A stretch of 64,000 nucleotides of DNA from an uncultured Christensenellaceae bacterium. GTDB lineage: Bacteria; Bacillota; Clostridia; Christensenellales; CAG-314. Under the pieces are notes generated by a model. The model was not told the origin of the DNA. It saw only the letters and a list, made by a program, of their open reading frames with translations, and did no database searches. Numbering within the stretch: position 1 is the first letter of the stretch; every line of letters begins with the position of its first letter. The translations under genes and the position numbers were made by a program. This document shows positions 20,126-55,409 of the stretch, piece by piece. The stretch is taken from assembly GCA_910587795.1 (NCBI GenBank), contig CAJUNH010000002.1, forward strand, positions 135,400 through 199,399. Direction: 5' to 3'.

Positions 20126-20142
20126 ATTGACTTACCTTAACT

Positions 20143-20190
20143 AAAAACAACTCTTACAAAAACAGTAGGAGTTGTTTTTCTACTTTTTTC
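20143..20190 (+). terminator. intrinsic terminator after mscL
   Basis: 11-bp stem aaaaacaactc / gagttgttttt followed by T-rich sequence. Confidence 0.7.
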
Positions 20191-20311
20191 ATTCAAATTT
20201 TACAGTTGGTTGATGTTGTCTTATTTTTGTTTTTTGCAGCCTAACTATATATTATTTTTGTGATACAAATTGGTTTTTATTTTTTCGTTTGTATTTTACC
20301 GCGACACACTT

Positions 20312-21193: not shown

Positions 21194-21363
21194 AAGCGTA
21201 CCTCTCCTTTTTTCCGCAAGTGAAAAATACAATAAACTGCATCGGTATATAAAATGCAGCTTTATTTTTTCTTTACATTACGTAAATACAATATATCGCT
21301 ATTAACGTTTACGTCAATAGAAATAGAAAATTACGGCCGACAAACAATATCGACCGTAATTTA

Positions 21364-22728
21364 TTATCTGTTATAAATTTTATCGCGGATATCTTTAACG
21401 CGGGCGGCGGTAATATCGTTATTTTTACACTCCTCGCTAATTTTATCGCGGGCGTGCATAACGGTGGTGTGGTCGCGTCCTCCAAAGTATTCGCCTATAG
21501 AAACAAGAGGAACGCTTTGCCCCAAAATATCGCAAATCAAATATATACATACTTGACGCGGAACTACTATTTCTTTATTTTTCTTTTTGCCGATAATATC
21601 TTCCTTACGCACACCGAAGTAATCGCACGTGGTTTTTACAATTTGATCGATAGTTATAATGTCGTTGGACGAATCGGCATAGTCGCGCAAAGCGTCGTTT
21701 ACGATATTCATATCGTTTGGGTCTCCGCCTACCAACGTACTGTAACTTATAATGCGGTGGAGCATTCCCTCCATTTCGCGTATATTGTTGGTTATCTTTT
21801 CCGCAATCAAACTTAATACTTTAATGTTTAAACTGTACCCGCGGGCGTTGCATTTTTTTTGCAAAATAGCTATACGCGTTTCCAAATCGGGAGGCTGTAT
21901 ATCCGCAATTACGCCTGTGGCAAATCTCGTTTTAAGACGTTCCTCAATTTTTATTTCCTTCGGCGGACGGTCGCTGCTTAATATAATTTGCTTTTCGGCA
22001 AGATACAGCTCGTTAAAAGTATGGAACATTTCTTCCTGCGTACCCTCTTTATTTGCAAGGAATTGCACGTCGTCCATCATTAAAACGTCCAGCTTACGGT
22101 ATTTATTTCTAAAATTTTTCATTGCGTTGGGGTTTGCTGTATCGTGCAGAGACTCGATAAACTCGTTTACAAACTGATCGCAAGTTACGTATTTTATTTT
22201 CTTTTCTGGAAAATTCCTCTGTAAAGAATTTCCTATCGCGTGCATCAGGTGGGTTTTTCCCAATCCTACGCCTCCCCACAAAAATACGGGATTGTATTTT
22301 ATTTCCTTATTTTCCGCCACGGCATGCGCAACGGCGTTGGCGTATTCGTTACTTTTTCCTACTACAAAGTTATCAAACGAATATTGCGCAACAAATACAG
22401 CCTTGTCATCCGTAATAGATACGTAATTGCCGCTTACCGGCAAGTCTACTTCCTTATCCACCTTGCCTATATTATCCAAATCTCCGTCGGTTATTATTTC
22501 TACGTCTAATATTGTGGGAAACACCAACGCAGTACATTTTTTTATAATATCCTTATAATTTTTATCGATTATATTTTTCAGCGCTCGGGTTTCGGCAAGC
22601 AAATACAGTCTGTCGTTATGTATGCCTACCGGCTGCAGTTGGTTTATATACAAATCGTACTGCAATGTGGATACCTTCGACTCGGTTTCCAGCAAAATAT
22701 TGTCCCATATTTGATTTAATTTAAGCAT
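21364..22728 (-). CDS. dnaA: chromosomal replication initiator protein DnaA
   Basis: AAA+ Walker A GGVGLGKTHLMHAIGN, box VII/sensor motifs, C-terminal DNA-binding HTTVMHARDKI. The start is taken at MLKLNQIWDNILLE (22728); the track ORF begins at a TTG at 22803 with no RBS. Start uncertain by up to 75 nt. Confidence 0.95.
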   Translation of the reverse strand: MLKLNQIWDNILLETESKVSTLQYDLYINQLQPVGIHNDRLYLLAETRALKNIIDKNYKDIIKKCTALVFPTILDVEIITDGDLDNIGKVDKEVDLPVSGNYVSITDDKAVFVAQYSFDNFVVGKSNEYANAVAHAVAENKEIKYNPVFLWGGVGLGKTHLMHAIGNSLQRNFPEKKIKYVTCDQFVNEFIESLHDTANPNAMKNFRNKYRKLDVLMMDDVQFLANKEGTQEEMFHTFNELYLAEKQIILSSDRPPKEIKIEERLKTRFATGVIADIQPPDLETRIAILQKKCNARGYSLNIKVLSLIAEKITNNIREMEGMLHRIISYSTLVGGDPNDMNIVNDALRDYADSSNDIITIDQIVKTTCDYFGVRKEDIIGKKKNKEIVVPRQVCIYLICDILGQSVPLVSIGEYFGGRDHTTVMHARDKISEECKNNDITAARVKDIRDKIYNR

Positions 22729-22817
22729 AGTACATTTATTATACACGGATTTATTTAAAATAGCAAGTTTAATTTGCGCCGTTGTTGACAACAATTTAGA
22801 CAAAGGAGATACTGAAA

Positions 22818-23468
22818 ATGGAATTAATAAACAGTCAAACTTACATCAACTTAGCCAAAGCGTACTCAGGTGAAACGCAAGCCCGTACCCGTTACGAATT
22901 TGTAGAATACGGTATGCGCAACGAAGGCTACTCCACAATGGCGGAAATAGTAGATACTATTGCATATCAGGAATTTAATCATGCCCGTATGTATTATACG
23001 TTTTTACAGCAGGCTTCGGCAAAGCCCATAAAAAATATCGAATACAGCGCGGGTTTTCCGTTTAAAGAAAAATGGGCGATATTGGACAATCTTAAATTTG
23101 CCGCCGAGGACGAACACAACGAAGCAAAAATTTATACGGCGTTTGCTAAGACCGCACGCAAGGAAGGCTTCGACGAGATAGCAACGCTGTTCGAGCAAAC
23201 GGCGGAAGTGGAAAAAATCCACGAAAGTATATTTTTGGAATTGTACAACCAAATGAAAGAAGACCGCCTTTATAAAAGCGAAACGCCCACAACATGGGTT
23301 TGCGCTTCCTGCGGCTATACAGCCACGTCTACCGAGGGTTGGACGGAATGTCCTTTGTGTAAAGCAAAACAGGGCGCAATTCTGCTCCATTTGCAGAGTA
23401 TGAACAATGCGGATATTTCCTCTTTGCTGTCTTTAAAAAATTCACCGTCCGCGTCTGCGCGCTCATAG
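22818..23468 (+). CDS. rbr: rubrerythrin
   Basis: Diiron four-helix motifs (E..AR..Y, EEF.H, E..H) and a C-terminal rubredoxin-like CASCGY...CPLC. Confidence 0.9.
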   Translation: MELINSQTYINLAKAYSGETQARTRYEFVEYGMRNEGYSTMAEIVDTIAYQEFNHARMYYTFLQQASAKPIKNIEYSAGFPFKEKWAILDNLKFAAEDEHNEAKIYTAFAKTARKEGFDEIATLFEQTAEVEKIHESIFLELYNQMKEDRLYKSETPTTWVCASCGYTATSTEGWTECPLCKAKQGAILLHLQSMNNADISSLLSLKNSPSASARS

Positions 23469-23746
23469 AAATCGACTGAAAAAACTAAATATAATAATAC
23501 TTGCCGAACAATAGATAATACAAAATAAATATACGTATTTTATAAATCGGTATTTATTTTTTGGGACAATGTCTATCGGTTACAAAACCAAAAAGTTTTA
23601 GTTTTGTACAAGTAAAGCCGTTTAACTGCTTTTATTGCACATTATACAGTAATAAATTATTTAACCGATAAAAACGTAAGTAATGATTTACTGTTTAAAC
23701 GGTAAAGTTTTGTAACGGCAATCAGGCTTAATCACAGAAAAAAATT

Positions 23747-23797
23747 TGCGCCGCAATAATTTATTTTTAATTGCGGCGCATTTATTTGTTTTTTTTT
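23747..23797. terminator. bidirectional intrinsic terminator between rbr and dnaN 3' ends
   Basis: 11-bp perfect stem tgcgccgcaat / attgcggcgca with an A-run upstream and a long T-run downstream. Confidence 0.75.
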
Positions 23798-23839
23798 GTT
23801 TTTGTCAATAAATTTTATAACGTTTTTAACAAGCCTATT

Positions 23840-24946
23840 TTATACGATTTGTTTTACGGGCAAAATAAAGTACAAAACTTCATCGCTGTCGTAAATAGTT
23901 ATAACGCAGCTGTTATGTTGGGCAAATTCCATTTTAATGCTTTCCGCAGACATAACCTTTAAGCAATCGTTTATAAAACGGGAGTTGTATGCGCAACGCA
24001 CGTCCTTACCGTTTAAGCTGATTGTAATGTTTTCCTTGGCCGTGCCGTACTGGCTTGTAGAGGATATAGTCATACTGTATTCCTCTATATTAAATACAAC
24101 AAGGTTGTTCTTTTCGCTGCGGGACATAATAGACGCCGTATTTAAAGCTTTTTCAAAAGTTTCCTTATTAACTATCAGCGTCGACAGAAAATCCTTAGGT
24201 ACAATATTGTCGTACTTGATGTACTGTCCGCCCAGCAATCGCGTAAACAGCTTAGTGTTTTCCATGGCAACCATCAAATAGTTGTTTTCTATAAACACTT
24301 TCAAAACGTTATCGCTGTCGGTCAACAGCTTTGATAGCTCCGATAAACTTCGGGACGGAATGGTTGCGCTGATTTCGTCGACGCGTTCCTCCAAGGCTTT
24401 TTTGCTCATTGCAAAACGGTAGCCGTCGGTTGCCACTGCGCACAGCGTGTATTGTTTTGCTTCGAAATGTACGCCTTTAAGCATAGGGCGGCTGTCGTCG
24501 GTTGCCACTGCAAAAATAACGTTATTGATAATTTCTTTCAAGTTCATTTCCTGTACGGCAAAGTAACTTGCGCCGTTTACGGTTTCCACTTCGGGATATT
24601 CCATAACGTCCAAAGTGCTTATCGTACATTCGCTGTTTGCCGAACTTATAAACAATCTGTTGTCGTCGGCAATTTCCAGCGAAATATCGCTGCCGTTATC
24701 TGCAATATTGCGTATATATTCGCCGAAGATCTTTCCGGGAACAAGCAAACCTCCGCCGACAATAACGTTTGCGTCTATGGATTTTTCGATAGCAAGGTCT
24801 TTATCCGTAGCGTACAGCGTCAGTCTGTCGTTTTCCGCCGTAATCTTTATACACTCCAACACGGGAGCAACGTCGCGGTTAGGCAACGCTTTGGAAACTT
24901 TGGCGACTGCGTCGTTTAAATCCAAACTGTTTACAATGATTTTCAT
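23840..24946 (-). CDS. dnaN: DNA polymerase III beta sliding clamp
   Basis: 368 aa from MKIIVNSLDLNDAVAKVSKALP, a typical DnaN N-terminus with three-domain length. GGAG RBS before the ATG at 24946. Confidence 0.95.
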   Translation of the reverse strand: MKIIVNSLDLNDAVAKVSKALPNRDVAPVLECIKITAENDRLTLYATDKDLAIEKSIDANVIVGGGLLVPGKIFGEYIRNIADNGSDISLEIADDNRLFISSANSECTISTLDVMEYPEVETVNGASYFAVQEMNLKEIINNVIFAVATDDSRPMLKGVHFEAKQYTLCAVATDGYRFAMSKKALEERVDEISATIPSRSLSELSKLLTDSDNVLKVFIENNYLMVAMENTKLFTRLLGGQYIKYDNIVPKDFLSTLIVNKETFEKALNTASIMSRSEKNNLVVFNIEEYSMTISSTSQYGTAKENITISLNGKDVRCAYNSRFINDCLKVMSAESIKMEFAQHNSCVITIYDSDEVLYFILPVKQIV

Positions 24947-24989
24947 AATAAGCACTCCTTACAAGTCTTTTGATTTTGTCTTTCGTCAC

Positions 24990-25500
24990 AACAAGTTATA
25001 CACTTTCTTCGGGTAGTAGTGTTATTAGGCAATGTGAGTATGTGTATAACCTCTGCGTATGCCTAATAAAAAAACGATATAATGTGGCGGAAAAAAAATT
25101 TACACACAAGATGTTGTGGTATGTCTAAAATAGACAATGTGTATAGGTTTTGCGTATTTGCGTAAACTTGTCCACATTTTATACAGCGAAGGTTTAAGCC
25201 TTAATTTTAAACTGCGGCATTTGCCTTAAACAAGAAAGAAAACGCAAGTTAATGCAGCTATTGATAATCGAAAAAAGCAAAAGCCCGACTCCGCGGTAAT
25301 TAAACCGTTTTGTAATTTTTTAACGGTAATAATCTTTATAAATACCGCCGCTGATTTACTATTATATTATATCATAAATATCGGCAGATTGCAATGCTTA
25401 CAAGTAAACACATTAACTAAAATTTAATAAAAAAGACGGTGTAAAATAAAAGACAGCGTAAAACGTAAAAAAATAAATTTAACAATAATGTTGTATATCG
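24990..25500. other. candidate oriC: DnaA-box cluster plus AT-rich tract
   Basis: 9-mers near TTATNCACA: 24996-25004 TTATACACT, 25041-25049 TGTGTATAA (perfect on the complement), 25138-25146 TGTGTATAG, 25168-25176 TTGTCCACA. AT-rich stretch 25320-25500. Coding-strand bias switches here. Confidence 0.5.
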
Positions 25501-25519
25501 GCAAAATGTATGGTATAAT
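25491..25519 (+). promoter_or_regulatory. sigma-A promoter for the DegV-family gene
   Basis: TTGTAT, 17-nt spacer, TATAAT, with a TGg extended -10. Confidence 0.55.
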
Positions 25520-25584
25520 CGAAAACAAGGTCGGCAAATCGGTAAATCGGAAATAAAAAATGACCGGCAGCAAGAGGGAATAAT

Positions 25585-26463
25585 ATGAGCAAATTAATTA
25601 TAGACGCCGACGGAGAGTTATGGTACACCCGTCAGGAAGAACTGGGCGTAGATTATATAAAAATGCCTTTTTCGTATAAGGGAGAGGAATACGAATACGA
25701 TTTAGGTAAAACGACCGATTTTAGAGCGTTTTACGACGCTGTACGCGGAGGCGAAGTGCCCAAAACAATGGCGCTTAATCCCGACGATTACGTCCGCATA
25801 ATAGAACCGTACTTTAAGCAGGAAGAAGACGTGTTATACGTCAGCTTTTCCCACGCTATGAGCGGAACGTTCGATCATTTGCAAACGGCATTGCATACTC
25901 TTGCCGAAAAATATCCCAAGCGCCGCTGCCGTGTGTTCGATACAAAAGCGATAAGTTTAGGGGCAGGCATTCAAATGGAATATGCAGCCGAACTTAAAAA
26001 CAGCGGAGCAAGCGACGACGAAATTATCCGAAAACTTACGGAGCTGCGCGATAGAGTCGCGGTATATTTTGTAGTGGACGATTTGATGCATCTTAAAAGG
26101 GGCGGAAGACTTTCGGGCGTGGCGGCGTTTGCCGGAACATTGCTTTCTTTAAAGCCTATGCTGACGCACGATGAAAAAGGCGGACTGAAAGTATTTGAAA
26201 AAATATCCGGCAGGCGCAAGGCATTGCGTAAAATGGCGGATAAAGTAATAAACGAATTAACCGGCACCGAATTTAACGTGTACGTTGTAGATGCGGATTG
26301 CCCCGACGAAGGAAATTTGTTAAAGGACATGATTTTGGAAAAACGTCCGGAAGCAAAAGTTGTCCGCCAAACCGTAGGTCCCGTAATAGGCGCGCACTGC
26401 GGACCGGATACTGTCGGCGTAATATTTATTGCGGATTCAAGACCCGTACCTTTGGAAAAATAG
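25585..26463 (+). CDS. DegV-family fatty-acid-binding protein
   Basis: 292 aa with SHAMSGTF (S-x-SGT block), HLKRGGRLSG and LSLKPML motifs typical of DegV. Confidence 0.88.
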   Translation: MSKLIIDADGELWYTRQEELGVDYIKMPFSYKGEEYEYDLGKTTDFRAFYDAVRGGEVPKTMALNPDDYVRIIEPYFKQEEDVLYVSFSHAMSGTFDHLQTALHTLAEKYPKRRCRVFDTKAISLGAGIQMEYAAELKNSGASDDEIIRKLTELRDRVAVYFVVDDLMHLKRGGRLSGVAAFAGTLLSLKPMLTHDEKGGLKVFEKISGRRKALRKMADKVINELTGTEFNVYVVDADCPDEGNLLKDMILEKRPEAKVVRQTVGPVIGAHCGPDTVGVIFIADSRPVPLEK

Positions 26464-35810: not shown

Positions 35811-35838
35811 TTGACAAACGGAAAAAGTGTGGTATACT
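35811..35838 (+). promoter_or_regulatory. strong sigma-A promoter of the collagen-like/RHS operon
   Basis: TTGACA (35811-35816), 16-nt spacer, TATACT (35833-35838), with a TGg extended -10. Confidence 0.65.
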
Positions 35839-35943
35839 GTAATAGAACATAAGTTCGATAAAATTCAAAAGGAGAAGAAAATCAAGGATAAGTAAATAAA
35901 AGTAAAAACGTAATAGTAAAAAAAAGGCAATGCGGGCGGTATA

Positions 35944-35998
35944 CCGTCTGCGGTTAAAAGACGGCAAAGGTAAAGTATCCTTTGTTTCGTCTTTTTTT
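35944..35998 (+). terminator. terminator-like hairpin inside the operon leader, with an overlapping alternative hairpin (possible attenuator)
   Basis: Stem aaagacggcaaagg / cctttg(tt)tcgtcttt followed by T7. Its 5' arm (agacgg, 35959-35964) can instead pair with ccgtct (35944-35949). Confidence 0.55.
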
Positions 35999-36033
35999 AT
36001 GTAAAAAAACAATAAAAAATAAAGGAGAAAAAA

Positions 36034-36975
36034 ATGGAATTTATAAACAGAGTAAGTGCGGAAAAAGGCAGAATTAAATTAACGAAAAGCGACGGCACGG
36101 AGGAAATATGCACCGTACAGATGTGTGATGACGCAAATCCGCAGGGAACGCCGCTAAACAAGCAAACGTTCGACGATTTTAAAGAGGATATTTTAAACAC
36201 GGTATCAAAATTAAACTCTATAACGGAAACTTTGGTATACGGCAAAACAATCAGCGTAACCGATACGGTCAATTTGGAAAACACAGATGTTACTTTAACG
36301 TTAGACGGTTTTAACCGTACGCCCATTGTAGGCGAAACGTTTATCGGTATATTTTATTCCGTCGACGGTATCAGCGAAACGTCGTGCATATCCGTATGTA
36401 AAGTTATGCAAGTAACTTCGTCTGCAAACACTTGTATGGTAAAAGCGGTAAGCCGCCGAGTAGATACGTCGGGTATCGCTATAAAGTCCGTTACACACAG
36501 CGGACAGGACGTTAACGGCGGAAATGTGTACACAGTTCTTCTTTCCAACGGCGCAAAAGTATACTTTACCGCACCGCGCGGCGAAAAAGGCGAGAAAGGA
36601 GAAAAAGGTGATAAAGGCGACAAGGGCGATAAAGGCGACAGAGGATATAAAGGAGATAAAGGCGATCGCGGCGAAAAAGGCGAGTGTATTTTTATCGAAC
36701 CCAGCGGCGAGTATATTGTCAAAGGCGAAAAAGGAGATAAGGGAGACAAAGGCGACAAAGGAGAAAAGGGCGAAGGCGGCTCCGGCGTGTATCTGTCAAG
36801 CGAAGGTTTTACTGCCGGCGTAGGCAGATACGACGTAAGCAGCGTTGCATACAACAAACAGGAACTGTGCGCCGGCGACCTTATACTGTCCACGTCAACC
36901 AAAAATATGGTGCGCGTAAGGTCGTTGACAAGCGACGGGTTTATGTTTATAGGCGAATATGTTTTAACTCTGTAA
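36034..36975 (+). CDS. collagen-like triple-helix-repeat protein with a tail-fibre-like N-terminus
   Basis: Two Gly-X-Y tracts: (GEK)3(GDK)3GDRGYKGDKGDRGEKGE at 36580-36684 and GEKGDKGDKGDKGEKGEGGSG at 36724-36786. The N-terminal NRV...GTPLNKQTF resembles prophage tail-fibre N-termini. AAGGAG RBS. Confidence 0.8.
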   Translation: MEFINRVSAEKGRIKLTKSDGTEEICTVQMCDDANPQGTPLNKQTFDDFKEDILNTVSKLNSITETLVYGKTISVTDTVNLENTDVTLTLDGFNRTPIVGETFIGIFYSVDGISETSCISVCKVMQVTSSANTCMVKAVSRRVDTSGIAIKSVTHSGQDVNGGNVYTVLLSNGAKVYFTAPRGEKGEKGEKGDKGDKGDKGDRGYKGDKGDRGEKGECIFIEPSGEYIVKGEKGDKGDKGDKGEKGEGGSGVYLSSEGFTAGVGRYDVSSVAYNKQELCAGDLILSTSTKNMVRVRSLTSDGFMFIGEYVLTL

Positions 36976-37019
36976 GACAGCGGCGGCGTAACGTAATTAA
37001 TAAAAAAGGAAATAACAAT

Positions 37020-40000
37020 ATGAAAGATAACTATGAAATTATAAAAGATTGTTTGTCGGGTGCGGAGCCGTCTGCAAAAAACGGTTTTAACGCGGACAGC
37101 ACAAACGCCGCGGTAAATTTTTCGCAGGCGGAAACGGGCAGTAACCCGAGCGTAAACCTTGCGACAGGCAGGCTGCGCTACGTATTCGGCGACGTAAGCA
37201 TAGGTTACGGCAATTTTGCAATACAGGTAAACCACGTTTATACAAGCACGCGTAACAGTAATTTTAAAAATAAATTCAGCGAATTCGGCAATAACTGGAA
37301 GCTGAATTTATCGCAATGCGTTGTAAACGGCGGAGTAGACTTTTTATATATGGACGGGCAGGGCGACGTGCACCGCTTTGTAAAATTCGACGGCGACCGC
37401 TACTATGACGAATGCAACGCAAACCTTGTGCTGTCCGTAGAAAGTTCTGCTATTAATAAAATAAGGTACAACTACGTTATTACGGATAACGTAGGTAATA
37501 AAATGTATTTCGGCGAAAACGGCTTAATTATTGCAGCCCAAGACGGTCATAACGCGTCTATGATAAAATGTTTTGTATATAATGGAAATAATTTACTTAC
37601 CGAAGTATACGACGCACGAACAGAGAAAAAATGCATACGCTTTGAATACGACGGACAAAATAAATTAAAGTCCGCTTTTGCTTACAGCAACTACAGCAAA
37701 AAAGTTTCCGGTATAAAATACGAATACGACTCTAACGGTAATTTGCAGAAAGTATATAAAACGGCTTTTAACAAAGGCGCGGAGGAAGTTTTTTGCAGAG
37801 AAATGTACCGATTCGAGTACGGCTCGTACAGTAACCTAATCCAAATAGTCGACTTGCAAACAACCGAAGCTGTTGCAATAAAATATAACAACGAAAAAGC
37901 GGCGGAAAAAATCACGTCTGGCGTTTTAAAGCAGGATTGTATAGCGGTGGGTCAAAATCTGTATGCGGGCATGGCGGAGTGCGGTATGTTAGACAATCGG
38001 CAATTTATCCCTAAACACAGTCTAAGCTTTTTTTACACCAAAGGGAAAGACGGCACGGCGCAGGAAGTGCAAATTACAAACGAGGACGGAATAAAAATCG
38101 CCTACTTTTTAAATACGGCAGGTAAAATCGTCAGCTCGTTTGAAGTAACAGAAGCTAATATTTACAAAACGCTTAATAAGCAGGGCGCAAAACATTTACT
38201 AAATGCGTCGGGGCAAGCGCAAACGACAATAAACGGTTATAGTCCCCTCGCTTCAAGCGGCAGCAGCGTAAACGTTTCTGTTCCAAGCGGGTTCGATTTG
38301 GCAAATAACAAAGCAGAAAAAAAGTACAATTATTTTCAGTACTCGTTTTGGCTTAAACTTTTAAGCGACTGTCATCTGCCGCAAGCAATGGTGACATATA
38401 AATTTGAAAATAACGATCAGCAGCAGCAACAAGTTTACATAGACGGAAATGCACAAAACGTCTGGCAAAAAGTATCTCTTCCCGTAATTGTTCCAAATCT
38501 CGAAAACGATTCAAATACGGATAAAGAAAATAATCCCCAAACGGATAAACTTCAAGCCATTATAATCAGTCTGTTAAGCGAAGGCACGTTTAGTAATTGC
38601 GATTTTGAAATAATAGAAATCGGCTTTGAGCCCGCGCCTCTTACAACATCATTTTTAAGCGACAGCAAATTGTATGATGTAACGGAAGTAAGGCTGACGG
38701 TCAAAAACGGCAACGATCTTCAAACGCAAAAAAAAGTAATTAACCGAAATTTGTTTTTTACCGAAAACGATATTTTGGCAACGGCAAGCCGAAAGTTTAT
38801 GTTTCCCAACGGCGCGGACGGGTGTTTTGACGTAATATGCAATAACGGCACTAAGCGTATAGGCAGCGTAAAAACGATAGAGTTTAAAACGGACGGCGTA
38901 TTTTTCAGTCCGTATGTCCCCTATTATAGTTTTTTTACCGCGTTAAATACCGTCGTTCAACTGCAATACGGAAATAAAATAACATCTCTGTACGATTACA
39001 ATGATCAATGCGTTATTATGCAGACACAAGGCGTAAACGCCGAGGGTACAAGCAGTTTAATAGAAGTTTCCGTAGACAAGTACGGCAAAACACTGTACAA
39101 AAAGGACGAATACGGTGTAAAAACGCAGTACGGCTACAACTCTTTCGGCGCTTTAATCAGCGAAAAAGTAACCGATAAATCCTACGCGAAAAGGTCGGCA
39201 TTATATTACAGTTACGATAACGAAGGCAGGCTGTCCGCTAAACACAACGGTTTACGGGGCGAAACTTATCAGTATGACGACTACGATAAAATTTACAAAA
39301 TAACAGACTGCAAGGTTGTAAACGGCAAGCTGCAAGCAATGAAGCACAGCATACGCAAGTATTACGACATTTTTAACGATAAAACAACAAAGCAGTACGA
39401 AAACAACGGCAGCCGAGATCACGCCTGCACCGTTGCCGAATATCAAAACGGGCTTACCCGTACCGTAACGGACGGCGTGGCAAAGTACGGAGCAGTTCGC
39501 TATCCCGAACAGGACGAAGTACAGTACACAACTTTTTGGTTTGGCGAAGGCAAAGCGCAAACCGATACCGTTACCAAAAACAACGAGGGCGAAAAAACTT
39601 ACACAAGCAAATGCGGATTAAACCGAATAAGTAAAACCGTAGACGCGTACAACAGAGTAAAGCAAGTTTCAATGCAAGCCGTAAACGACGATTACGAAAG
39701 TACAGAAAATACTTTTACTTACCATTACGATAATTTAACCGAAAGTAAATTTGCAAGCAAACCTTATAAGCTTACAAACGGCATCACAGACGTTACGGAA
39801 TACTTTTACGACGGCAGCGGCAATCTTACGGGCTACATCCAAAAAGACGGCGATAAAACTTTAATGGAAGTACAGCAGCTTCCTTCGGGAGCTACAAAGT
39901 ATAAATACTCAAACCGGGACAAAATTTATGTTTCGGTAGAACACGACAGCGAAAAAACACTCAATCCGCGCGTACGTTCGATAAAATATTTGGAGGACTT

Positions 40001-41747
40001 TAACACAAACTTCGATAAACCCGAAGTTACTCCGTTGTTCCAAATAGACTATGCGGAAAATGAAATAAACGGACTGCCTACAAAAAAAACAGTGCGCCAC
40101 AAAACAAAAAAGGGTTCCGTCGAGGACTATTCCTACATAACCGTAAACGGAGTGACGCAGCTCGAAAAAAGTAATTACAGCGGAAAATGTTGGCAGGGCA
40201 AAAATGAAGGCAACGTCTGCGAAAGTAAATACGATATAACTTATCAGTACAACGACGTGGGCGAAATAACCCAGATAGTCCGCAGTGTGGATTGGAAAAT
40301 ATACGGCGGCGACAATTTGCAAGACAGTTACAAACGCAGCTATACTTATAAATACGAGTATAACGACCTGCATCAGCTTACAAAAGAACGGCTGGAATCG
40401 CACGGCGCAGACTATACCTACGATAAATACGGCAGGCTAAGCTCTGTAAACGGCAAACAGCTGCAATACGACAGCGCGTACAACCGTTTGGATATATTCG
40501 GCGATACACATTTTTTTTACGACGGCAGCGGCAACAGAACCAAGGAAATAACAACGGGACAGCAAATAAAACGTTATACTTATCTTTGCGGTTTGTTAAC
40601 CGAAACAAACAACGCCGTATACGGTTATAACCAAAACGGCGTGCGTAACAAAAAGGTTAGCGGCGGCATAACGACAAAATATATATTGGACGGCAATAAA
40701 ATCCTGTGCGAAGTACAAACCGGCGAGAAAATCAGTGATTTATATAATGATGACCAAAGGGTTGTTCAGTACTTTTACGATACAAACGGCATAGCATATA
40801 TAAAAATAAACGAAATCGTATACGAGGCAGTGCGCGACGCTTTGGGCAACGTTGTTATGCTGCTAGACTACGACAGCGGCGTTGTGGCGTGCTATTATCT
40901 TTACGACGCTTTGGGCAACTGCTACGTAAAAGACAGCAAAGGCGACAGCGACAATAATCCCAAATCCATAGGCAATACCAATCCGTTTAGATGGAAAGGT
41001 TTTTACTACGATACGGAAACGGGCTTTTACTACGCCAACGGCAGGTATTACGACCCCAAAGTAGGTCAGTACTTAAACGCGCCGCCGTTAAGCGACATAA
41101 TGCAAACCCCGTTCCGTCCCCGCATACTTGACAGGTACACTCCTATATGCAATAATTTAATAGAATTGGCGTATAACCCTGTTTCGGCATTTACCGTAAC
41201 GCAGCTGTTTGCCGACCTTAACTATGCGGACGACCAACAGCCGCTGTGGTATTTAATTTTAGGCGGCGCATTAGCCGTAGGTTCGTTTGTTCTAGCCGGA
41301 TTTACTGTTGGCTGGGGCAAAGCAATAGCAACCACGCTTATCGGCGGCGCTGTAGGAGCAGGCTTTGGTGTGTTAAGCGCACATATAACCGGCGGAGATA
41401 TTAAAACCGGCGCAATGTTTGGTATGTTATCCGGCATTATAGCAGGGAATACTGCTTCTTTCGGCGGATTGACGGTAGGCTTTATAGGCGGAGCTATTGC
41501 CGGCGGATATACGGAAATAGGCGGACAATTATTTCAATCCGGACAAGTAGTAGATTGGGATAAAGTTTACCAAAAAGCAATAGATTCAGGCTTTGTGAAC
41601 TTGATTTCAACTTATTTGGGTGCTATGACAGAAGATTTAAAAGGTTTTAAAAAGCTTTTAGCTGAATTTGTGTCGGATAGCATTACAAATGGAATATCTC
41701 TATTTATTGACTATATTAGGAGTTTAATACGTGAAACTTGGCATTAA
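37020..41747 (+). CDS. RHS/YD-repeat polymorphic toxin (~1575 aa)
   Basis: N-terminal SVNLATGRLRYVFGDVSIG. Many YD repeats (YSYDNEGRL, FYDGSGNLTG, YTYDKYGRL, YGYNQNGVR). Core end NPFRWKGFYYDTETGFYYANGRYYDPKVGQY, then a divergent 219-aa C-terminal domain. The ATG at 37020 has an AAGGA RBS; the track ORF from 36867 overlaps the upstream gene. Confidence 0.9.
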   Translation: MKDNYEIIKDCLSGAEPSAKNGFNADSTNAAVNFSQAETGSNPSVNLATGRLRYVFGDVSIGYGNFAIQVNHVYTSTRNSNFKNKFSEFGNNWKLNLSQCVVNGGVDFLYMDGQGDVHRFVKFDGDRYYDECNANLVLSVESSAINKIRYNYVITDNVGNKMYFGENGLIIAAQDGHNASMIKCFVYNGNNLLTEVYDARTEKKCIRFEYDGQNKLKSAFAYSNYSKKVSGIKYEYDSNGNLQKVYKTAFNKGAEEVFCREMYRFEYGSYSNLIQIVDLQTTEAVAIKYNNEKAAEKITSGVLKQDCIAVGQNLYAGMAECGMLDNRQFIPKHSLSFFYTKGKDGTAQEVQITNEDGIKIAYFLNTAGKIVSSFEVTEANIYKTLNKQGAKHLLNASGQAQTTINGYSPLASSGSSVNVSVPSGFDLANNKAEKKYNYFQYSFWLKLLSDCHLPQAMVTYKFENNDQQQQQVYIDGNAQNVWQKVSLPVIVPNLENDSNTDKENNPQTDKLQAIIISLLSEGTFSNCDFEIIEIGFEPAPLTTSFLSDSKLYDVTEVRLTVKNGNDLQTQKKVINRNLFFTENDILATASRKFMFPNGADGCFDVICNNGTKRIGSVKTIEFKTDGVFFSPYVPYYSFFTALNTVVQLQYGNKITSLYDYNDQCVIMQTQGVNAEGTSSLIEVSVDKYGKTLYKKDEYGVKTQYGYNSFGALISEKVTDKSYAKRSALYYSYDNEGRLSAKHNGLRGETYQYDDYDKIYKITDCKVVNGKLQAMKHSIRKYYDIFNDKTTKQYENNGSRDHACTVAEYQNGLTRTVTDGVAKYGAVRYPEQDEVQYTTFWFGEGKAQTDTVTKNNEGEKTYTSKCGLNRISKTVDAYNRVKQVSMQAVNDDYESTENTFTYHYDNLTESKFASKPYKLTNGITDVTEYFYDGSGNLTGYIQKDGDKTLMEVQQLPSGATKYKYSNRDKIYVSVEHDSEKTLNPRVRSIKYLEDFNTNFDKPEVTPLFQIDYAENEINGLPTKKTVRHKTKKGSVEDYSYITVNGVTQLEKSNYSGKCWQGKNEGNVCESKYDITYQYNDVGEITQIVRSVDWKIYGGDNLQDSYKRSYTYKYEYNDLHQLTKERLESHGADYTYDKYGRLSSVNGKQLQYDSAYNRLDIFGDTHFFYDGSGNRTKEITTGQQIKRYTYLCGLLTETNNAVYGYNQNGVRNKKVSGGITTKYILDGNKILCEVQTGEKISDLYNDDQRVVQYFYDTNGIAYIKINEIVYEAVRDALGNVVMLLDYDSGVVACYYLYDALGNCYVKDSKGDSDNNPKSIGNTNPFRWKGFYYDTETGFYYANGRYYDPKVGQYLNAPPLSDIMQTPFRPRILDRYTPICNNLIELAYNPVSAFTVTQLFADLNYADDQQPLWYLILGGALAVGSFVLAGFTVGWGKAIATTLIGGAVGAGFGVLSAHITGGDIKTGAMFGMLSGIIAGNTASFGGLTVGFIGGAIAGGYTEIGGQLFQSGQVVDWDKVYQKAIDSGFVNLISTYLGAMTEDLKGFKKLLAEFVSDSITNGISLFIDYIRSLIRETWH
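41693..41725 (+). repeat. toxin 3'-end/RBS segment that recurs before each immunity paralog (master copy)
   Basis: aatatctctatttattgactatattaggagttt. Compare with 42338-42368 and 42996-43026. Confidence 0.7.
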
Positions 41748-42249
41748 AAATAACGAGTTCATAACTTGCAATGTACCTTTTCTAGGATTAGTTTCGCTTT
41801 TTTCTATAACTTGGGCAATTAGTTTCGACCTTTCTGTACTCGCTATCGTGTTGTTATGTATTGGAGCGGGAAGCATAATTTTAACGGTTGTTACAAATAT
41901 ACCTAATATGCTAAACTATATATTGATTGACGATGAAACAATTACGCTTTATCGCCATAAAAAGCCTGTAAAACAAATAAATATAGCGGATATAAAATCT
42001 TTGGTGCTTTGTCAACATGTAGGTAGGGTACGACATAAAGCTAGTAAATACATAAATAAAATTACTTATGTCGTAATAAACGACGGAAATTTTTTAGAAA
42101 AACAATGGACGAAACGGGAACTACGCAAAAAAATATTGAGTGACAGCGAGGGGTGGATTGCAATAGAATATTCTGCTAATCGGTACGCCAAAATTAAACA
42201 ATTCCTTCCAAACTGTGAAGTTGAAACGTGTGCAATAACAAGAAAATAA
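41731..42249 (+). CDS. 2-TM membrane protein, putative cognate immunity protein (paralog 1 of 3)
   Basis: GTG start 8 nt after AGGAG, overlapping the RHS stop by 17 nt. Two N-terminal TM helices plus a ~100-aa soluble domain (ILIDDETITLYRHKKPV...WIAIEYS...LPNCE). Confidence 0.6.
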   Translation: MKLGIKNNEFITCNVPFLGLVSLFSITWAISFDLSVLAIVLLCIGAGSIILTVVTNIPNMLNYILIDDETITLYRHKKPVKQINIADIKSLVLCQHVGRVRHKASKYINKITYVVINDGNFLEKQWTKRELRKKILSDSEGWIAIEYSANRYAKIKQFLPNCEVETCAITRK

Positions 42250-42321
42250 ATTATTGTTCCATCAATCAATTTAACGATTATTCAACAACGCAGGGAAATG
42301 TATCCTTCTTACTTTAATAAT

Positions 42322-42330
42322 GGGGGGGGG
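42322..42330 (+). repeat. G9 homopolymer tract upstream of immunity paralog 2
   Basis: taatGGGGGGGGGtattgttaatatc. The flank resembles the G10 tract at 28937-28946. A TGtTAATAT extended -10-like element lies directly downstream. Confidence 0.85.
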
Positions 42331-42337
42331 TATTGTT

Positions 42338-42368
42338 AATATCTCTGCTAGTTGTATATAAGGAGTTT
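42338..42368 (+). repeat. relic of the toxin 3' end plus RBS
   Basis: aatatctctgctagttgtatataaggagttt aligns with 41693-41725. Confidence 0.65.
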
Positions 42369-42373
42369 AGCAC

Positions 42374-42898
42374 ATGAAAATCGGTTTTAATAATAACGAA
42401 GGAATAAATTTAAATGCGCTTTGTATATGCGCAATTGCACTTTACTTAATGGCAATGGCAATCGGCTTCAGATATACGGTATTCGCGATTATATTGTTAT
42501 GTTTTGCAGGGATAAGCATTATTTTTACCGTCATTAGAAACATACAAAATATACAGAATTATATTTTAATTAACAATGAAGCAATTACGTTATATCGTAG
42601 AAAAAAGCCTGTAAAACGAATAAATCTTGCAGACGTAAAGTCTATAGTACTTGTGCAATATATATTTAGTGGGCGAGGAGCATTTAATCCGGACAAATGT
42701 ATAAATACAAACACTTATATTGTATTAAACGATGGGGCTTTTTTTAAAAAAGAATGGACAAAGAGTAAATTTCGTAAAAGAGCATTAAGTGACAGCGAAG
42801 GGTGGATTGCAATAGAATTTTCTTTTAAACGCTATGCCGCCCTTACTAAGCTACTGCCAAACTGTGAAGAAGAAAAGTACACACTAACAGGTAAATAG
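42374..42898 (+). CDS. 2-TM membrane protein, immunity-like paralog 2 of 3
   Basis: By eye about half of positions are identical to paralog 1 over the full length (YILINNEAITLYRRKKPVKRINLADVKSIVL, SDSEGWIAIEFS, LLPNCE). AGGAG RBS. Confidence 0.6.
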   Translation: MKIGFNNNEGINLNALCICAIALYLMAMAIGFRYTVFAIILLCFAGISIIFTVIRNIQNIQNYILINNEAITLYRRKKPVKRINLADVKSIVLVQYIFSGRGAFNPDKCINTNTYIVLNDGAFFKKEWTKSKFRKRALSDSEGWIAIEFSFKRYAALTKLLPNCEEEKYTLTGK

Positions 42899-42995
42899 TT
42901 TTTAAGTAGTCAAAATTTTTAAAAATTGATTAACGGCGCAATGAAGTGTAACCTTCGCATTTTATAAATTACACGATTGATCGGGTAATTAGTTT

Positions 42996-43026
42996 AATAT
43001 CTTTGTTTTTGAGAATATTAGGAGTT
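42996..43026 (+). repeat. relic of the toxin 3' end plus RBS
   Basis: aatatctttgtttttgagaatattaggagtt aligns with 41693-41725. Confidence 0.6.
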
Positions 43027-43032
43027 CGATTT

Positions 43033-43581
43033 ATGAAGATGAAGATTGGCATCAATTATAACAAAACAATAAATGCTATAATGACTCCTATAGTGGGATT
43101 AATTATTATGTTTATTATAGGGTCTTTTCTTAAAGGTAAAGTTGTTCTCGCTATTGTATTGTTATCGATTGCAATGGGAATTATCATTTTTATTGCCATT
43201 AGAAATATTAAAAATGTGTTAAACTACATATTGATTGACGAAGAAGAAATCACGCTTTTTCGCCGTAACAAGCCTGTTATACGAATAAAACTAGCAGATA
43301 TAAAATCTTTAGTATTATGTCAACAAACGTTGCAGCGTAGAGGTCAATACCATCCTGATCAATTTTCCAACTCTAATTTGTTTATTTTAATCAATGACGG
43401 AACGTTTTTAAAAAAAAGTTGGACAATACGTAAATTGCGAAATAAGATGTTAGTTAACAGTGAAAAGTGGATTGCAATAGAATTTTCTTCTAACCGCTAT
43501 GCCGCTTTTAAACATTTACTTCCAAACTGTGAAATAGAAACGTGTACAATACGTGGATCAATAATTAGGATAGGAGATTAA
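43033..43581 (+). CDS. 2-TM membrane protein, immunity-like paralog 3 of 3
   Basis: MKMKIGINYNK... has the same architecture and motifs (YILIDEEEITLFRRNKPV, WIAIEFS, LLPNCEIETC). AGGAG RBS at 43019-43023. The track ORF starts 30 nt earlier. Confidence 0.6.
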   Translation: MKMKIGINYNKTINAIMTPIVGLIIMFIIGSFLKGKVVLAIVLLSIAMGIIIFIAIRNIKNVLNYILIDEEEITLFRRNKPVIRIKLADIKSLVLCQQTLQRRGQYHPDQFSNSNLFILINDGTFLKKSWTIRKLRNKMLVNSEKWIAIEFSSNRYAAFKHLLPNCEIETCTIRGSIIRIGD

Positions 43582-43611: not shown

Positions 43612-43643
43612 GCGCAGAGGTTATATTCCTCTGCGCCGTTTTT
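43612..43643 (+). terminator. intrinsic terminator closing the RHS/immunity operon
   Basis: Perfect 9-bp GC-rich stem gcgcagagg / cctctgcgc with a 7-nt loop, followed by ttttt. Confidence 0.8.
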
Positions 43644-52840: not shown

Positions 52841-54253
52841 ATGAAGCAGAATATGTTAACAAAATTTATGCAGGCTACAAGCGGCGACGAAGACGTCCGC
52901 GTACGCAAAATAGAGTGCGGCATAAGCGTTACCGTAGTATGTATGGATACTATGAGCGACGACGGCAAAGTAAGCAGTTACGTTTTGCAGCCGTTGGCGT
53001 ACATCAACGAAGCCACGGGCTTAACCGACATTTATACTCGGCTTATGGCGGGGGCTACCTGCACCAAGGTAACAAGTCTGGAAAAAGCGTTGGAGAATTA
53101 CTCTAACGGACATACTATTGTGTTTGACGACGACGGAAACGCCGTGTCGGTAGATACTCGCACGTCGCTTGTCCGCGCAATTGCGGAGCCTCCCACGTCT
53201 ATGGTTTTGCGCGGTCCGCGCGAAGGATTTGTGGAGGACGTCAAAATAAATATAACGCTTTTGCGCAAACGTTTAAAAACGCCGGACTTTAAGTATGTCA
53301 ACATAAGCGTCGGTAAGTACACTAATACGGCAGTAAGCGTGTGTTATATAGATTCCGTTGCGGATAAAGCCGTTGTAGACGATATTATACAGCGTATCTC
53401 CGCAATCAAGACGGACGGAATAATGGACAGCAGTTATATTGCGCGTTATCTGGACAAAAACAAAACGCTGCTGTTCCGCAGAGTCGGTATAACCGAAAAA
53501 CCCGATATCGCCGTTGCCAAAATGCTGGAAGGACGGGTTGCGATTATTGTAGACGGGTCGCCTATGGTTTTAACTTTGCCGTATTTGTTTATGGAGGATA
53601 TTCAAAGTCCCGGCGACTATTACGAAAATTCCACAATGACCGCGCTTAGCCGAACGCTGCGTTTTATCAGCGTTTTGGCATCGCTGTTACTGCCTGCTCT
53701 GTATGTGTGTTTGCAGGTTTACAATTATCAAATAATACCCATAAAGTTTTTGATAACTTTGATGAACGCAAGCGAGTCCATACCGTTTTCGCCTTTGTCG
53801 GAAATGCTGCTTGTACTTATAATTTTCGATATATTGCGGGAAGCAAACCTGCGTATGCCTTCGGCGGTGGGAATATCGCTGTCGCTTGTAGGGGCAATCG
53901 TACTGGGCGACGCCGCAGTAAAAGCGGGGTTGTTGGGCGCGCCCGCCGTAATGATAGGCGCGTTAAGCGGAATAGGTTTGTTTACGCTGCCGGATAACAC
54001 GTTGGTGCTGTCGTTGCTTAGACTTTTGCTCACCTTTATAGGCGGCACTATGGGGCTGTTGGGGGTAACGTTGGCTATGATGGCGGTTATATTTTATCTG
54101 GCGTCTTTGCAAAGCAACAAATCACCGTTCCTTGCTCCGTATGCTCCCGCTGTTCCGCAGGATTTGCAGGACGGTTTAATGCAAGACCCCGTACCCTCAA
54201 TGAAAAAACGTCCCCGATCCATATCAAATAAAAATAAGACGAGAAGAGGCTGA
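52841..54253 (+). CDS. spore germination protein, GerA-family A subunit
   Basis: RGPREGFVEDVKINITLLRKRL and C-terminal TM helices typical of GerAA/GerKA. The start codon is uncertain because no clear RBS is present. Confidence 0.85.
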   Translation: MKQNMLTKFMQATSGDEDVRVRKIECGISVTVVCMDTMSDDGKVSSYVLQPLAYINEATGLTDIYTRLMAGATCTKVTSLEKALENYSNGHTIVFDDDGNAVSVDTRTSLVRAIAEPPTSMVLRGPREGFVEDVKINITLLRKRLKTPDFKYVNISVGKYTNTAVSVCYIDSVADKAVVDDIIQRISAIKTDGIMDSSYIARYLDKNKTLLFRRVGITEKPDIAVAKMLEGRVAIIVDGSPMVLTLPYLFMEDIQSPGDYYENSTMTALSRTLRFISVLASLLLPALYVCLQVYNYQIIPIKFLITLMNASESIPFSPLSEMLLVLIIFDILREANLRMPSAVGISLSLVGAIVLGDAAVKAGLLGAPAVMIGALSGIGLFTLPDNTLVLSLLRLLLTFIGGTMGLLGVTLAMMAVIFYLASLQSNKSPFLAPYAPAVPQDLQDGLMQDPVPSMKKRPRSISNKNKTRRG

Positions 54254-54254
54254 A

Positions 54255-55409
54255 ATGAGCAAAGACAGAATCAGTATCAATCAATATGCGTTGATGTACT
54301 TGTTGCTTATTGCGGGAGGCAAATTTCTTAATTTGCCTTCGATTCTTGCCGCCGACGTAGGGCACGACAGTTGGCTTACAATAGCGTTTTCTTTTGTGTG
54401 GGACGCAGTTTGCTTGGTTTTTTTGCTGTGGGCAATAAAAATAAATAAGGACAGTCAGCTGGATTTATCCGCAATATTAAGTAAAACGGTCGGCAAAGTC
54501 GTATCGAAAATCGTACTTGTAATCTTTTTCGTAATGTTTGTCGTCCGCACAAATATATTGCTGGCGGCTTGTTACAAAATGTTTGCCGTAACCTTTGACG
54601 TATCCACAAACTGGATTGTGTTTGTTCTGCCCGTTGTTGCGTTATCGGTACTTACGTTAAAACTGGGTTTTACCTCAGTAGCAAGGGCAAGTCAGCTGCT
54701 GTTCGGTATCATATTTATCTGCGTGGTTTCGCTGCTGTTTTCGCCGATAGCGCAAGTGGAATTCGGTTCGCTGCTTCCCATAGGCGAAGCGGGCTGGGGC
54801 AAAATATTTTCCACGTCCTTTTTGCGCAGTTTTTGGTTTACCGATTACGTATTTATCTACTTGCTGCTGGATAACGTCAAAGTCAAAAACAAAGTGTTCA
54901 GTCCCGTGCTGACAGCTTTTGCCGTAGGCGCGGTTTTGACGGTGGCAATGAACGCGATTTTCGTAGCGCTGTACGGAAGTTTGGCTTCGCAGTTCGATTT
55001 GGCAATGAGCAAAATAGGCGTGCATTTTGTGTCAAATTCCTCAAACGGACGTTGGGACTGGCTGACGCTTTCGGTGTGGCTTATATCGGTGTTTATTAAA
55101 ATAGTGGTATTTTTCTACTGCGCGTATAAATGTTTGGAAAAAATATTTGAATTTAACAGCGATAAAATCAACTTTTGGGCGGTTGGCGCAATTACGTTGC
55201 TGTATATGCTGCCTATGTTTATATCCACAGAGATTGCGTTAAACACCGTAGTGCAGTACGGACTGTTGGTGTTTGCGCTCGTTCAATATGTGCTTCCTAT
55301 TGCAATGCCGTTTCTTACAAAGGCGGCGCAGATAAAAACAGCCGCGGAAAAAGGCGAACAGCCGCAAAAGGCGTCCGCAGACAAGGTAAAGGAGAAAATC
55401 GGTGTATAA
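54255..55409 (+). CDS. spore germination permease, GerAB-family B subunit
   Basis: About 10-TM APC-like protein with the N-terminal ISINQYALMYLLLIAGGKFLNLP. Sits between the A and C subunits. Confidence 0.8.
   Translation: MSKDRISINQYALMYLLLIAGGKFLNLPSILAADVGHDSWLTIAFSFVWDAVCLVFLLWAIKINKDSQLDLSAILSKTVGKVVSKIVLVIFFVMFVVRTNILLAACYKMFAVTFDVSTNWIVFVLPVVALSVLTLKLGFTSVARASQLLFGIIFICVVSLLFSPIAQVEFGSLLPIGEAGWGKIFSTSFLRSFWFTDYVFIYLLLDNVKVKNKVFSPVLTAFAVGAVLTVAMNAIFVALYGSLASQFDLAMSKIGVHFVSNSSNGRWDWLTLSVWLISVFIKIVVFFYCAYKCLEKIFEFNSDKINFWAVGAITLLYMLPMFISTEIALNTVVQYGLLVFALVQYVLPIAMPFLTKAAQIKTAAEKGEQPQKASADKVKEKIGV

Follow-up and report, generated by a model that had tools for sequence, protein, structure and literature searches.

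A phage-tail-fibre-like collagen-like protein linked to an RHS toxin without a classical export signal in an uncultured Christensenellaceae bacterium and related gut Clostridia

We analysed a 64,000-nucleotide (nt) stretch of DNA from an uncultured Christensenellaceae bacterium (assembly GCA_910587795.1, contig CAJUNH010000002.1, positions 135,400 to 199,399; hereafter the window), in which a gene encoding a tail-fibre-like (TFL), collagen-like protein immediately precedes a gene encoding an RHS/YD-repeat polymorphic toxin. A functional link between this phage-fibre-like protein and the signal-less RHS toxin is well supported. We estimate at roughly 55% the probability that the window holds, in minimal form, a conserved accessory system of phage origin that serves RHS toxins folded in the cytoplasm and devoid of a classical export signal.

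The locus consists of five co-oriented genes, all of them, like every other feature of the locus given below, on the plus strand: TFL (36034..36975; 313 amino acids (aa), no signal peptide or transmembrane segment), RHS (37020..41747; no signal peptide) and three immunity-like paralogues. TFL and RHS are separated by 44 nt, and RHS starts at ATG 37020 behind an AAGGA ribosome-binding site. A sigma-A-type promoter-like site (TTGACA-16 nt-(TG)TATACT, 11/12 matches, extended -10) lies at 35811..35838, a search between the TFL and RHS genes retrieved no terminator, and a strong intrinsic terminator (9-bp stem with 7 GC pairs; 43612..43636) closes the unit after the third immunity gene. The preliminary description of this DNA, made from the letters alone, had placed the two genes 44 nt apart under one promoter, and the open reading frames (ORFs), the promoter-like site and the uninterrupted intergenic gap agree with it. 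Two ORF calls were discarded. GTG 36867 as the RHS start is an ORF-calling artefact, ATG 37020 with its AAGGA site being preferred and giving a protein of 1575 aa; the antisense ORF 36354-37235 (minus strand, 293 aa, SPL-rich) is the reverse complement of the Gly-X-Y repeat, overlaps both genes and is not a gene.

Although divergent, the large protein is a true RHS toxin. Searches retrieved it with the profiles RHS_repeat (PF05593, E=1.1e-8, 35.7 bits with a cut-off of 22), YD_repeat (TIGR01643, 27.4 bits with a cut-off of 15.8) and, at residues 1309-1359, Rhs_assc_core (TIGR03696, 36.3 bits with a cut-off of 32.5), and residues 1110-1358 gave PDB sequence matches to RhsP and VgrG-Rhs. The AlphaFold model of residues 1-1060 (predicted local distance difference test (pLDDT) 75; predicted template modelling score 0.72) has a beta-cocoon fold, and Foldseek searches with it retrieved Rhs cores, teneurins and TcB-TcC at E-values of 1e-27 to 1e-10. 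About 32 variable, disordered residues precede the N-terminal plug (NFSQAE.G.NP.VNLATGRL...; 37113..37319). The conserved block begins at residue 33 and SVNLATG at residue 44, and residues 44-99 weakly match DUF6531, an ordinary RHS N-terminal plug. No hydrophobic segment of the kind found in Sec signal peptides is present in the first 60 residues, and Pfam searches of the protein detected no LXG, WXG, PAAR, LPXTG or wall-binding domain and no prePAAR/VgrG-binding N-terminal domain. Neither the protein nor its neighbours contain SpvB or TcA Pfam domains. The shell had previously been described as starting about 35 residues from the N-terminus, with no signal peptide or trafficking domain ahead of it; both points stand, as Pfam, hydrophobicity and the AlphaFold model, in which residues 1-35 are disordered, reveal only the DUF6531-like plug.

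About 23 protein clusters, 1290-1810 aa long (mostly ~1560-1810), make up the distinct subfamily of this RHS protein; they are 29-39% identical to the window RHS over approximately 77-98% of its length. Their N-termini are all short, variable and hydrophilic, and their C-terminal toxins differ. A family-specific beta-rich shell insertion at about residues 400-600 (38217..38819), with invariant Y441, S442, F443 and W444 as well as W482 and Q483, had no Pfam match at relaxed thresholds; it may serve in docking or binding. The core/toxin junction, a putative site of autoproteolysis, reads RYYDPKVGQYLNAPPLSD, the family consensus being YVDAAP; the usual D-P-x-G-L is absent as such.

TFL is built from several distinct segments. 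An N-terminal anchor motif (MEF.NR....GR.KL...(~15)...D.....GTPLN..TF; 36034..36213), common to nearly all partners of the TFL family, is followed by a middle beta-rich domain (residues 56-182; 36199..36579), 36-41% identical to P0069 and P0144 in search hits, by a first Gly-X-Y tract of 12 charged-rich triplets (residues 183-218; 36580..36687) encoded in a 9/18/45-nt tandem DNA repeat, by a second tract of 7 triplets (residues 231-251; 36724..36786) and by a C-terminal all-beta domain of about 64 aa (RYDVSSV..GDLILS..VRVRS..DGF.FIGE; 36778..36972; 58-66% identity in relatives, pLDDT ~80). Collagen (PF01391) was the sole Pfam match of TFL (E=2e-8, 34.2 bits, cut-off 27.2), and relaxed thresholds gave none for the N-motif, the middle domain or the C-terminal domain. 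The first tract is two triplets shorter in P0001, a 307-aa protein 97% identical to TFL, and the length of the stalk therefore differs between strains. A structure search of BFVD with the low-confidence TFL model produced only collagen and tail-fibre-like matches of low TM-score, and we do not rely on it.

The conserved feature of the TFL family is the N-motif of about 55 aa (MEFK[DN]R....PGR[VI]KL ... GTPL[NT]..T[FL]), not collagen, with 39-54% identity to the window TFL across loci. The distal parts are mosaic: collagen plus the 64-aa knob in the window type, another knob in P0069 and P0144, or about 20 extra residues followed by a separate gene for a 239-aa beta-rich protein. Many partners are accordingly proteins of 77-79 aa with the N-motif only and no collagen, encoded ahead of that beta-rich protein. 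The earlier emphasis on collagen therefore holds in part. The 313-aa protein does contain two short Gly-X-Y tracts and matches PF01391, but the part conserved in the family is the N-motif, and many partners contain no collagen.

The N-terminal ~50 aa of TFL match phage records at 35-41% identity, and the N-motif has a homologue in the tail module of Bajarodcaudo virus 3 (PQ006094.1), a protein of 113 aa, so that the resemblance to tail fibres first seen by eye at this N-terminus is one of homology. In the phage, the tape-measure and tail-tip genes precede its gene, and the lysis cassette, with genes for a small membrane protein and an endolysin, comes next. When the 113-aa protein was used as a query, it matched the TFLs of most fetched loci (24, the window included). 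PHROG tail-fibre families match the collagen region of TFL. Judged from the sequences, an invariable anchor at the N-terminus that carries exchangeable distal parts typifies phage tail fibres and receptor-binding proteins, and conservation of the N-motif while the distal parts are exchanged is what a fibre would show if its docking partner stayed the same and its receptors varied. TFL is thus homologous to a phage tail-module protein, but its context is not that of a phage: no baseplate, tail, tape-measure or capsid genes were detected among the window ORFs scanned or in the fetched RHS/TFL loci (Pfam lists and a tblastn survey).

The pairing of TFL with RHS recurs well beyond this genome. Word-index searches with the N-domain and the C-domain of TFL yielded one relative each, and an exhaustive representative search, dominated by collagen hits, gave P0059, P0062, P0064, P0069, P0073 and P0144. 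A gap of 10 nt separates P0064 from a downstream RHS gene of the window subfamily; after P0069 come genes for proteins of 136 aa and 129 aa (the latter holin-like), an RHS protein and an immunity protein. The gene upstream of the RHS homologues usually encodes a zinc-ribbon protein of 54-57 aa rather than a collagen-like one, which at first seemed to contradict the pairing; however, the same loci contain TFL relatives a few kb downstream that share the N-motif, and the collagen-bearing versions share the C-terminal domain as well. Counted from the RHS side, a fibre-like gene lies within 10 kb in 7/8 distinct subfamily loci. From the TFL side, scanning genomes with the C-terminal domain identified three at the species level, with RHS within 10 kb in 3/3. 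A metagenome scan with the N-motif, for which a three-sequence subset alignment was used as the eight-sequence version was too divergent, found 19 loci. In eight of them (L023, L024, L026, L027, L029, L030, L031 and L032) the motif is full-length and the sequence extends at least 1.7 kb upstream, and all eight have RHS-subfamily sequence there. RHS sequence was found nearby in every locus recovered from the TFL side on a long enough contig. Five copies of TFL are truncated to 39 aa (L036-L040); three of these loci (L037, L039 and L040) share with L023, by blastn, 930 bp comprising the RHS 3' tip, the immunity gene and the fibre gene, and are therefore orphan cassettes.

At least five gene orders keep TFL and RHS together. 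The fibre gene directly precedes RHS in the window and in L015, and is separated from it in L016 by genes for a 136-aa protein (p136) and a holin-like protein. In L023 and L031, and partly in others, the order is Com-like, holin-like, RHS, immunity, short fibre, 239-aa beta-rich protein, small protein and nucleotidyltransferase-like protein. In L003, L010, L012 and L013, Com-like, RHS and immunity genes with orphan cassettes are followed by a collagen-type fibre gene; the L013 type occurs in Christensenellaceae relatives. In L014, an RHS gene of a different family is divergent from a fibre gene and the holin-like gene that follows it. A TFL-family gene accompanies RHS in L009 too. The adjacency first noted in the window is thus not unique to this genome.

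Several of these loci have further features. The fibre, p136, holin-like, RHS and immunity module of L016 (1-21119; also L017 and L018) is part of a mobile element that encodes Rep_ORF2-G2P, PcfJ, PcfK, a helix-turn-helix regulator and a sigma-70-like factor. Gut metagenomes commonly contain the element, whose fibre protein is indexed in 153 collection blocks, and a deletion in L018 has fused a 38-codon holin stub to an RHS gene devoid of the first 934 residues. The short-fibre loci continue with a beta-rich protein of 237-239 aa that ends in a poly-Thr tail and then a nucleotidyltransferase-like protein (PF01909, E=4e-5), at 10244-11914 in L023, 444-2113 in L028, and 9343-9987 and 16273-17641 in L009. 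A small protein of ~86-113 aa is encoded between the two in L023 and L028, and in L009 a copy of the nucleotidyltransferase-like gene stands on either side of the entire RHS module. L014 (JAMPEJ010000002.1), with its fibre and holin-like pair divergent from a 1885-aa RHS gene, comes from a metagenome-assembled genome labelled Corallococcus sp.; its neighbouring genes are Firmicute-like and its relatives occur only in Clostridia, and the Corallococcus (Myxococcota) label of the contig may be a binning error.

Two small genes accompany RHS in the relatives. A holin-like gene is directly upstream of RHS in most of them; its product has an N-terminal transmembrane segment and matches a PHROG holin family (phrog_6918, E=3e-6) and Holin_LLH (E=0.013). 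No endolysin is linked to it in the relatives' loci. The Com-like zinc-ribbon gene, also upstream, was retrieved with the profile of a translational regulator of the Mu Com type (phrog_6417, E=8.5e-7). The holin-like protein is 59-72% identical between loci whose RHS proteins share 31-41%.

The phage character of all three accessory genes also admits a historical explanation, in which the fibre-, holin- and Com-like genes are leftovers of the tail and lysis end of a prophage that carried RHS and its immunity gene as moron cargo, and are dispensable for RHS function. The order in L016 (fibre, p136, holin, RHS) recalls that of the phage, where the N-motif gene stands just before the lysis cassette, and degenerate copies do occur, namely the truncated holin and RHS of L018 and the 39-aa fibre remnants. 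Yet truncated fibres are confined to orphan cassettes that have also lost the RHS shell, and the holin-like protein is far more conserved than RHS. In four comparisons of TFL genes, the ratio of nonsynonymous to synonymous substitution rates was 0.06-0.18, which indicates purifying selection; these genes are therefore not decaying. Together with the shared promoter and terminator frame in the window, this disposes of the concern that TFL might be an isolated prophage remnant transcribed on its own. Phages can carry RHS genes; however, neither the RHS subfamily nor the holin-like protein had matches in the 2.9 million viral contigs of IMG/VR, and the pair has outlasted at least five rearrangements while all other phage genes have gone from the loci. 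We consider mere historical linkage unlikely.

The sole IMG/VR match in the N-motif scan (L041) is tape-measure-like and was rejected as spurious. RHS genes were otherwise seen in phages in two instances. The complete 63-kb genome of the gut Anaeroplasmataceae phage NatCom_34063 (PV036447.1; L043 7906-14082) contains, among replication genes and not in the tail module, a gene for an RHS-like protein of 1836 aa and, after it, one for a product of 214 aa, and the gut siphovirus protein A0A8S5MN12 (1379 aa) in BFVD matches the RHS model. RHS toxins borne by phages thus exist, but they belong to other subfamilies.

In the L003/L010 type of locus, the fibre gene lies 2.4-3 kb downstream of RHS, behind a terminator and beside an M60 peptidase gene with a promoter of its own. 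The separately transcribed copy there also neighbours a gene for a giant surface protein, the M60 protein being mucinase-like, which invites the view that the fibre is an independent adhesin, surface or spore-coat filament of the BclA/Scl kind, engaged for instance in adhesion to mucus or cells, and merely shares a surface-and-competition island with RHS. The Gly-X-Y tracts suit such a role, and the GerA operon of the window supports an endospore-forming Firmicute. BclA has a C1q-like C-terminal domain and an exosporium-targeting N-terminus; the C-terminal domain of TFL is one of just ~64 aa with no Pfam match, in a model of low overall confidence. The NCBIfam profiles SclA, SclB and Lcl match TFL at 40-44 bits, but only in the Gly-X-Y region and with cut-offs of 325-500. 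Many family members contain no collagen, and linkage to RHS holds in contexts without an M60 gene. A scan for hydrophobic segments at the TFL N-terminus found none, and no LPXTG or wall-binding domain was detected with Pfam or NCBIfam, so that the fibre would need as unconventional an exit as RHS does. The promoter is sigma-A-like and not of the mother-cell type, and with no exosporium-type domain found, the BclA-like display on the spore surface that had been suggested for TFL and RHS is unsupported. An independent surface fibre is accordingly quite improbable. The M60 peptidase was also considered as the true partner of the fibre in the L003/L010 type and rejected, given its own promoter and signal anchor and a pairing confined to that locus type.

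Expression of the window operon may be controlled in its 190-nt leader, a feature overlooked in the preliminary description. The leader has a minimum free energy of -38.3 kcal/mol (z = -5.25 relative to shuffled controls) and contains a first hairpin and an intrinsic terminator (AGACGGCAAAGG...CCUUUGUUUCGUCU followed by U7; 35931..35998), the latter located immediately before the TFL ribosome-binding site. The 3' arm of the hairpin (CCGUCU) can alternatively pair with AGACGG of the terminator 5' arm, and a 24-codon ORF (35930-36004) overlaps both structures. This is the layout of a putative attenuator or anti-terminator; an Rfam search of the leader matched no family.

The C-terminal region that follows the RHS core (NPFRWKG...YYDPKVGQYLNAPP; 41112..41744) comprises about 210 residues, is rich in glycine zippers and contains two hydrophobic segments within residues 1408-1454, which suggests that the toxin is probably membrane-active or pore-forming. 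A PDB sequence search with it found no match. The first immunity-like protein (172 aa; 41731..42249) overlaps the RHS stop codon by 17 nt, the second (174 aa; 42374..42898) is 52% identical to the first, and the third has ~180 aa when read from ATG 43039 (43039..43581). In all three, a long hydrophobic stretch at the N-terminus could accommodate two transmembrane helices, and the hydrophobic tip beside neighbours of this type would fit a membrane-active toxin with membrane immunity proteins. An immunity homologue also follows a related toxin in L001, and the C-termini of other RHS homologues differ, PT-HINT and ribonuclease among them. L006 is a near-identical strain, with a TFL protein 99.7% identical. 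Between it and the window, synonymous divergence (dS) is 0.257 over the C-terminal 225 codons of RHS and 0.025 over the shell, a 10-fold difference, and the immunity sets (window 41070-43581, L006 7200-9103) consist of three and two paralogues, respectively, 59-63% identical. The toxin tip and its immunity genes have therefore been replaced recently.

Such replacement, along with multiple polymorphic immunity copies and orphan toxin-tip/immunity cassettes, is a hallmark of interbacterial polymorphic toxins. It counts against intracellular abortive infection, a reading in which RHS is retained in the cell, the fibre acts as a sensor or decoy for phage tails and the holin-like protein kills the cell. 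The absence of an export signal, the phage-derived parts and the tight regulators, whether Com-like or an attenuator, could be accommodated by it, but no PADLOC defence model was matched, and we regard it as highly improbable.

Our preferred reading is instead that of a phage-derived accessory system for the RHS toxin. RHS would form a self-contained beta-cocoon whose tip is neutralised by the three membrane immunity paralogues. TFL would descend from a phage tail fibre and consist of the ~55-aa anchor, a short trimeric stalk of the collagen type and a distal knob that varies. Its conserved N-terminus may dock on the RHS particle in place of the phage baseplate, since the RHS cocoon is the only conserved large protein able to replace it, and the variable distal part may bind a structure on the surface of target cells, which would make the complex a fibre-guided RHS bacteriocin. 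In the relatives, the holin-like protein may release the folded particle across the producer's membrane, and the Com-like protein may gate translation of a dangerous operon. In the window, the sigma-A promoter and leader attenuator may replace control of the Com type, and release might depend on a factor encoded elsewhere or on cell lysis. The full form of this model, in which TFL trimers docked on the cocoon form a free fibre-guided particle with holin-like release, Com-type control and targets set by the knob, would represent an unrecognised route in monoderms derived from a phage lysis module; we advance it tentatively, as a possibility with the odds against it.

Several observations weigh against the preferred reading. 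The window contains neither a holin-like nor a Com-like gene, leaving the release step unexplained there, and in the relatives the holin assignment derives from weak profile matches alone. The TFL monomer model is poor (pLDDT 54.7), and the TFL-RHS complex is a putative one. One RHS-subfamily locus, L005, has no fibre gene within 8 kb. Co-transcription, which had been proposed for the pair and is supported by the frame of the window, is not universal, as relatives of the L003/L010 type transcribe the fibre gene separately. The related loci come mostly from uncultured gut Clostridia (Christensenellaceae and relatives) and possibly share ancestry, and truly independent associations number nearer five or six than thirty. 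RHS genes are rare, and by a rough estimate about 1% of genes picked at random would have one within 10 kb, so that even five or six independent associations far exceed chance.

The rest of the window consists of replication-origin housekeeping DNA (gidA, gidB, yidC, dnaA and dnaN) and the GerA germination operon. dnaA (21364-22803) and dnaN (23840-24955) are on the minus strand, the cumulative GC skew has its minimum at ~22-24 kb, and the replication origin is probably located within 20000-26000, ~12 kb from the RHS locus. At 52841-56526, the GerA-family spore germination gene (470 aa, PF03323, E=7e-136) precedes two ORFs of the same orientation. The scan of the window covered ~20 larger ORFs, the downstream annotation being taken from the near-identical locus L006. 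Among these ORFs there were no phage, type VI secretion system (T6SS), type VII secretion system (T7SS) or contractile-injection genes, as had been stated before for the secretion and injection systems, and the 64-kb window contains no EssC-sized gene and no other ORF above 632 aa.

The RHS protein does not have the defining features, as far as tested, of the WapA, T6SS, T7SS or Tc delivery classes. It shares with WapA of Bacillus subtilis and Streptococcus suis and with teneurin-like proteins (TLPs) the YD/RHS shell, the polymorphic C-terminal toxin and the downstream immunity gene, and the best Foldseek TM-score of the RHS model was to the TLP structure 9ifo (0.34). However, Sec signal peptides are present in WapA and most TLPs, as are wall, S-layer or lipoprotein anchors, and the window RHS subfamily has neither, having fibre-, holin- or Com-like neighbours instead. 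How teneurin-like shells without obvious machinery are delivered remains to be elucidated according to a 2026 paper (PMC13018210). Rhs effectors of T6SSs and T7SSs have the same cocoon fold (8qja, 8qjc and 7q97, E ~1e-23 to 1e-27) and the same polymorphic toxin logic; those of T7SSs include LXG-linked or EssC-variant-linked Rhs in Listeria (PMC10327511). In contrast, the window RHS has no PAAR, VgrG, prePAAR, LXG or WXG, and no secretion-system genes were found in the window. The organism also shows Gram-positive traits, the GerA operon among them. Firmicute siphophage tail fibres resemble TFL in N-motif homology, PHROG matches to the collagen region and a swappable distal domain on a conserved anchor, but TFL is chromosomal, paired with an RHS toxin and without phage structural genes nearby.

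The closest working analogues are holin-linked release and umbrella toxins, with no homology seen to either. Holins are linked to toxin release in Clostridioides difficile, where TcdE accompanies the large clostridial toxins, and in the type 10 secretion holin/endolysin cassettes associated with Tc (ABC) toxins in Yersinia and Photorhabdus (PMC9527704). As in these systems, large toxins that fold in the cytoplasm and have no signal peptide are linked to a phage-derived holin in relatives of the window, and the RHS cocoon is shared with TcB-TcC of Tc toxins, the window model matching 6h6g by Foldseek (E=1e-14). Unlike Tc and type 10 systems, the loci have no linked endolysin or spanin, no TcA translocator and no SpvB/beta-propeller part of TcB, and they belong to monoderm Clostridia. 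The holin-like protein is also of a distinct family with weak profile matches, the window has no holin gene, and a TFL partner is not part of the TcdE or Tc systems. The Streptomyces umbrella toxin particles (UmbA, UmbB and UmbC) are diffusible multi-protein assemblies of Gram-positives in which diversified receptor-binding subunits set the targets (PMC11062931). In our proposed model, a polymorphic toxin would likewise work with separately encoded, diversified receptor-binding subunits, in a complex that here is only inferred. The likeness is one of working model only, as umbrella toxins consist of ALF-repeat UmbC and lectin/trypsin-like UmbA, and the present system of an RHS cocoon and a phage-fibre-like protein.

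Searches of the literature, with a comprehensive survey of polymorphic-toxin trafficking (PMC3482391) included, yielded no account of a fibre-like or holin-like partner of RHS. The locus family could represent an RHS toxin system with a new accessory and delivery module and, if the particle model holds, a new delivery route. How RHS/YD toxins without signal peptide, PAAR or LXG leave Gram-positive cells and reach their targets is an open question, for which this family offers a concrete candidate answer in a small conserved set, namely a fibre-like adaptor, a holin-like protein and a Com-like regulator. If true, it would place a second kind of multi-subunit, diffusible toxin particle beside the umbrella toxins among Gram-positives. 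If the fibre sets the target range, it would provide a modular handle for retargeting toxin cages against chosen gut Firmicutes. The version carried by the mobile element is common in gut metagenomes, and the system may thus shape competition within the gut microbiota.

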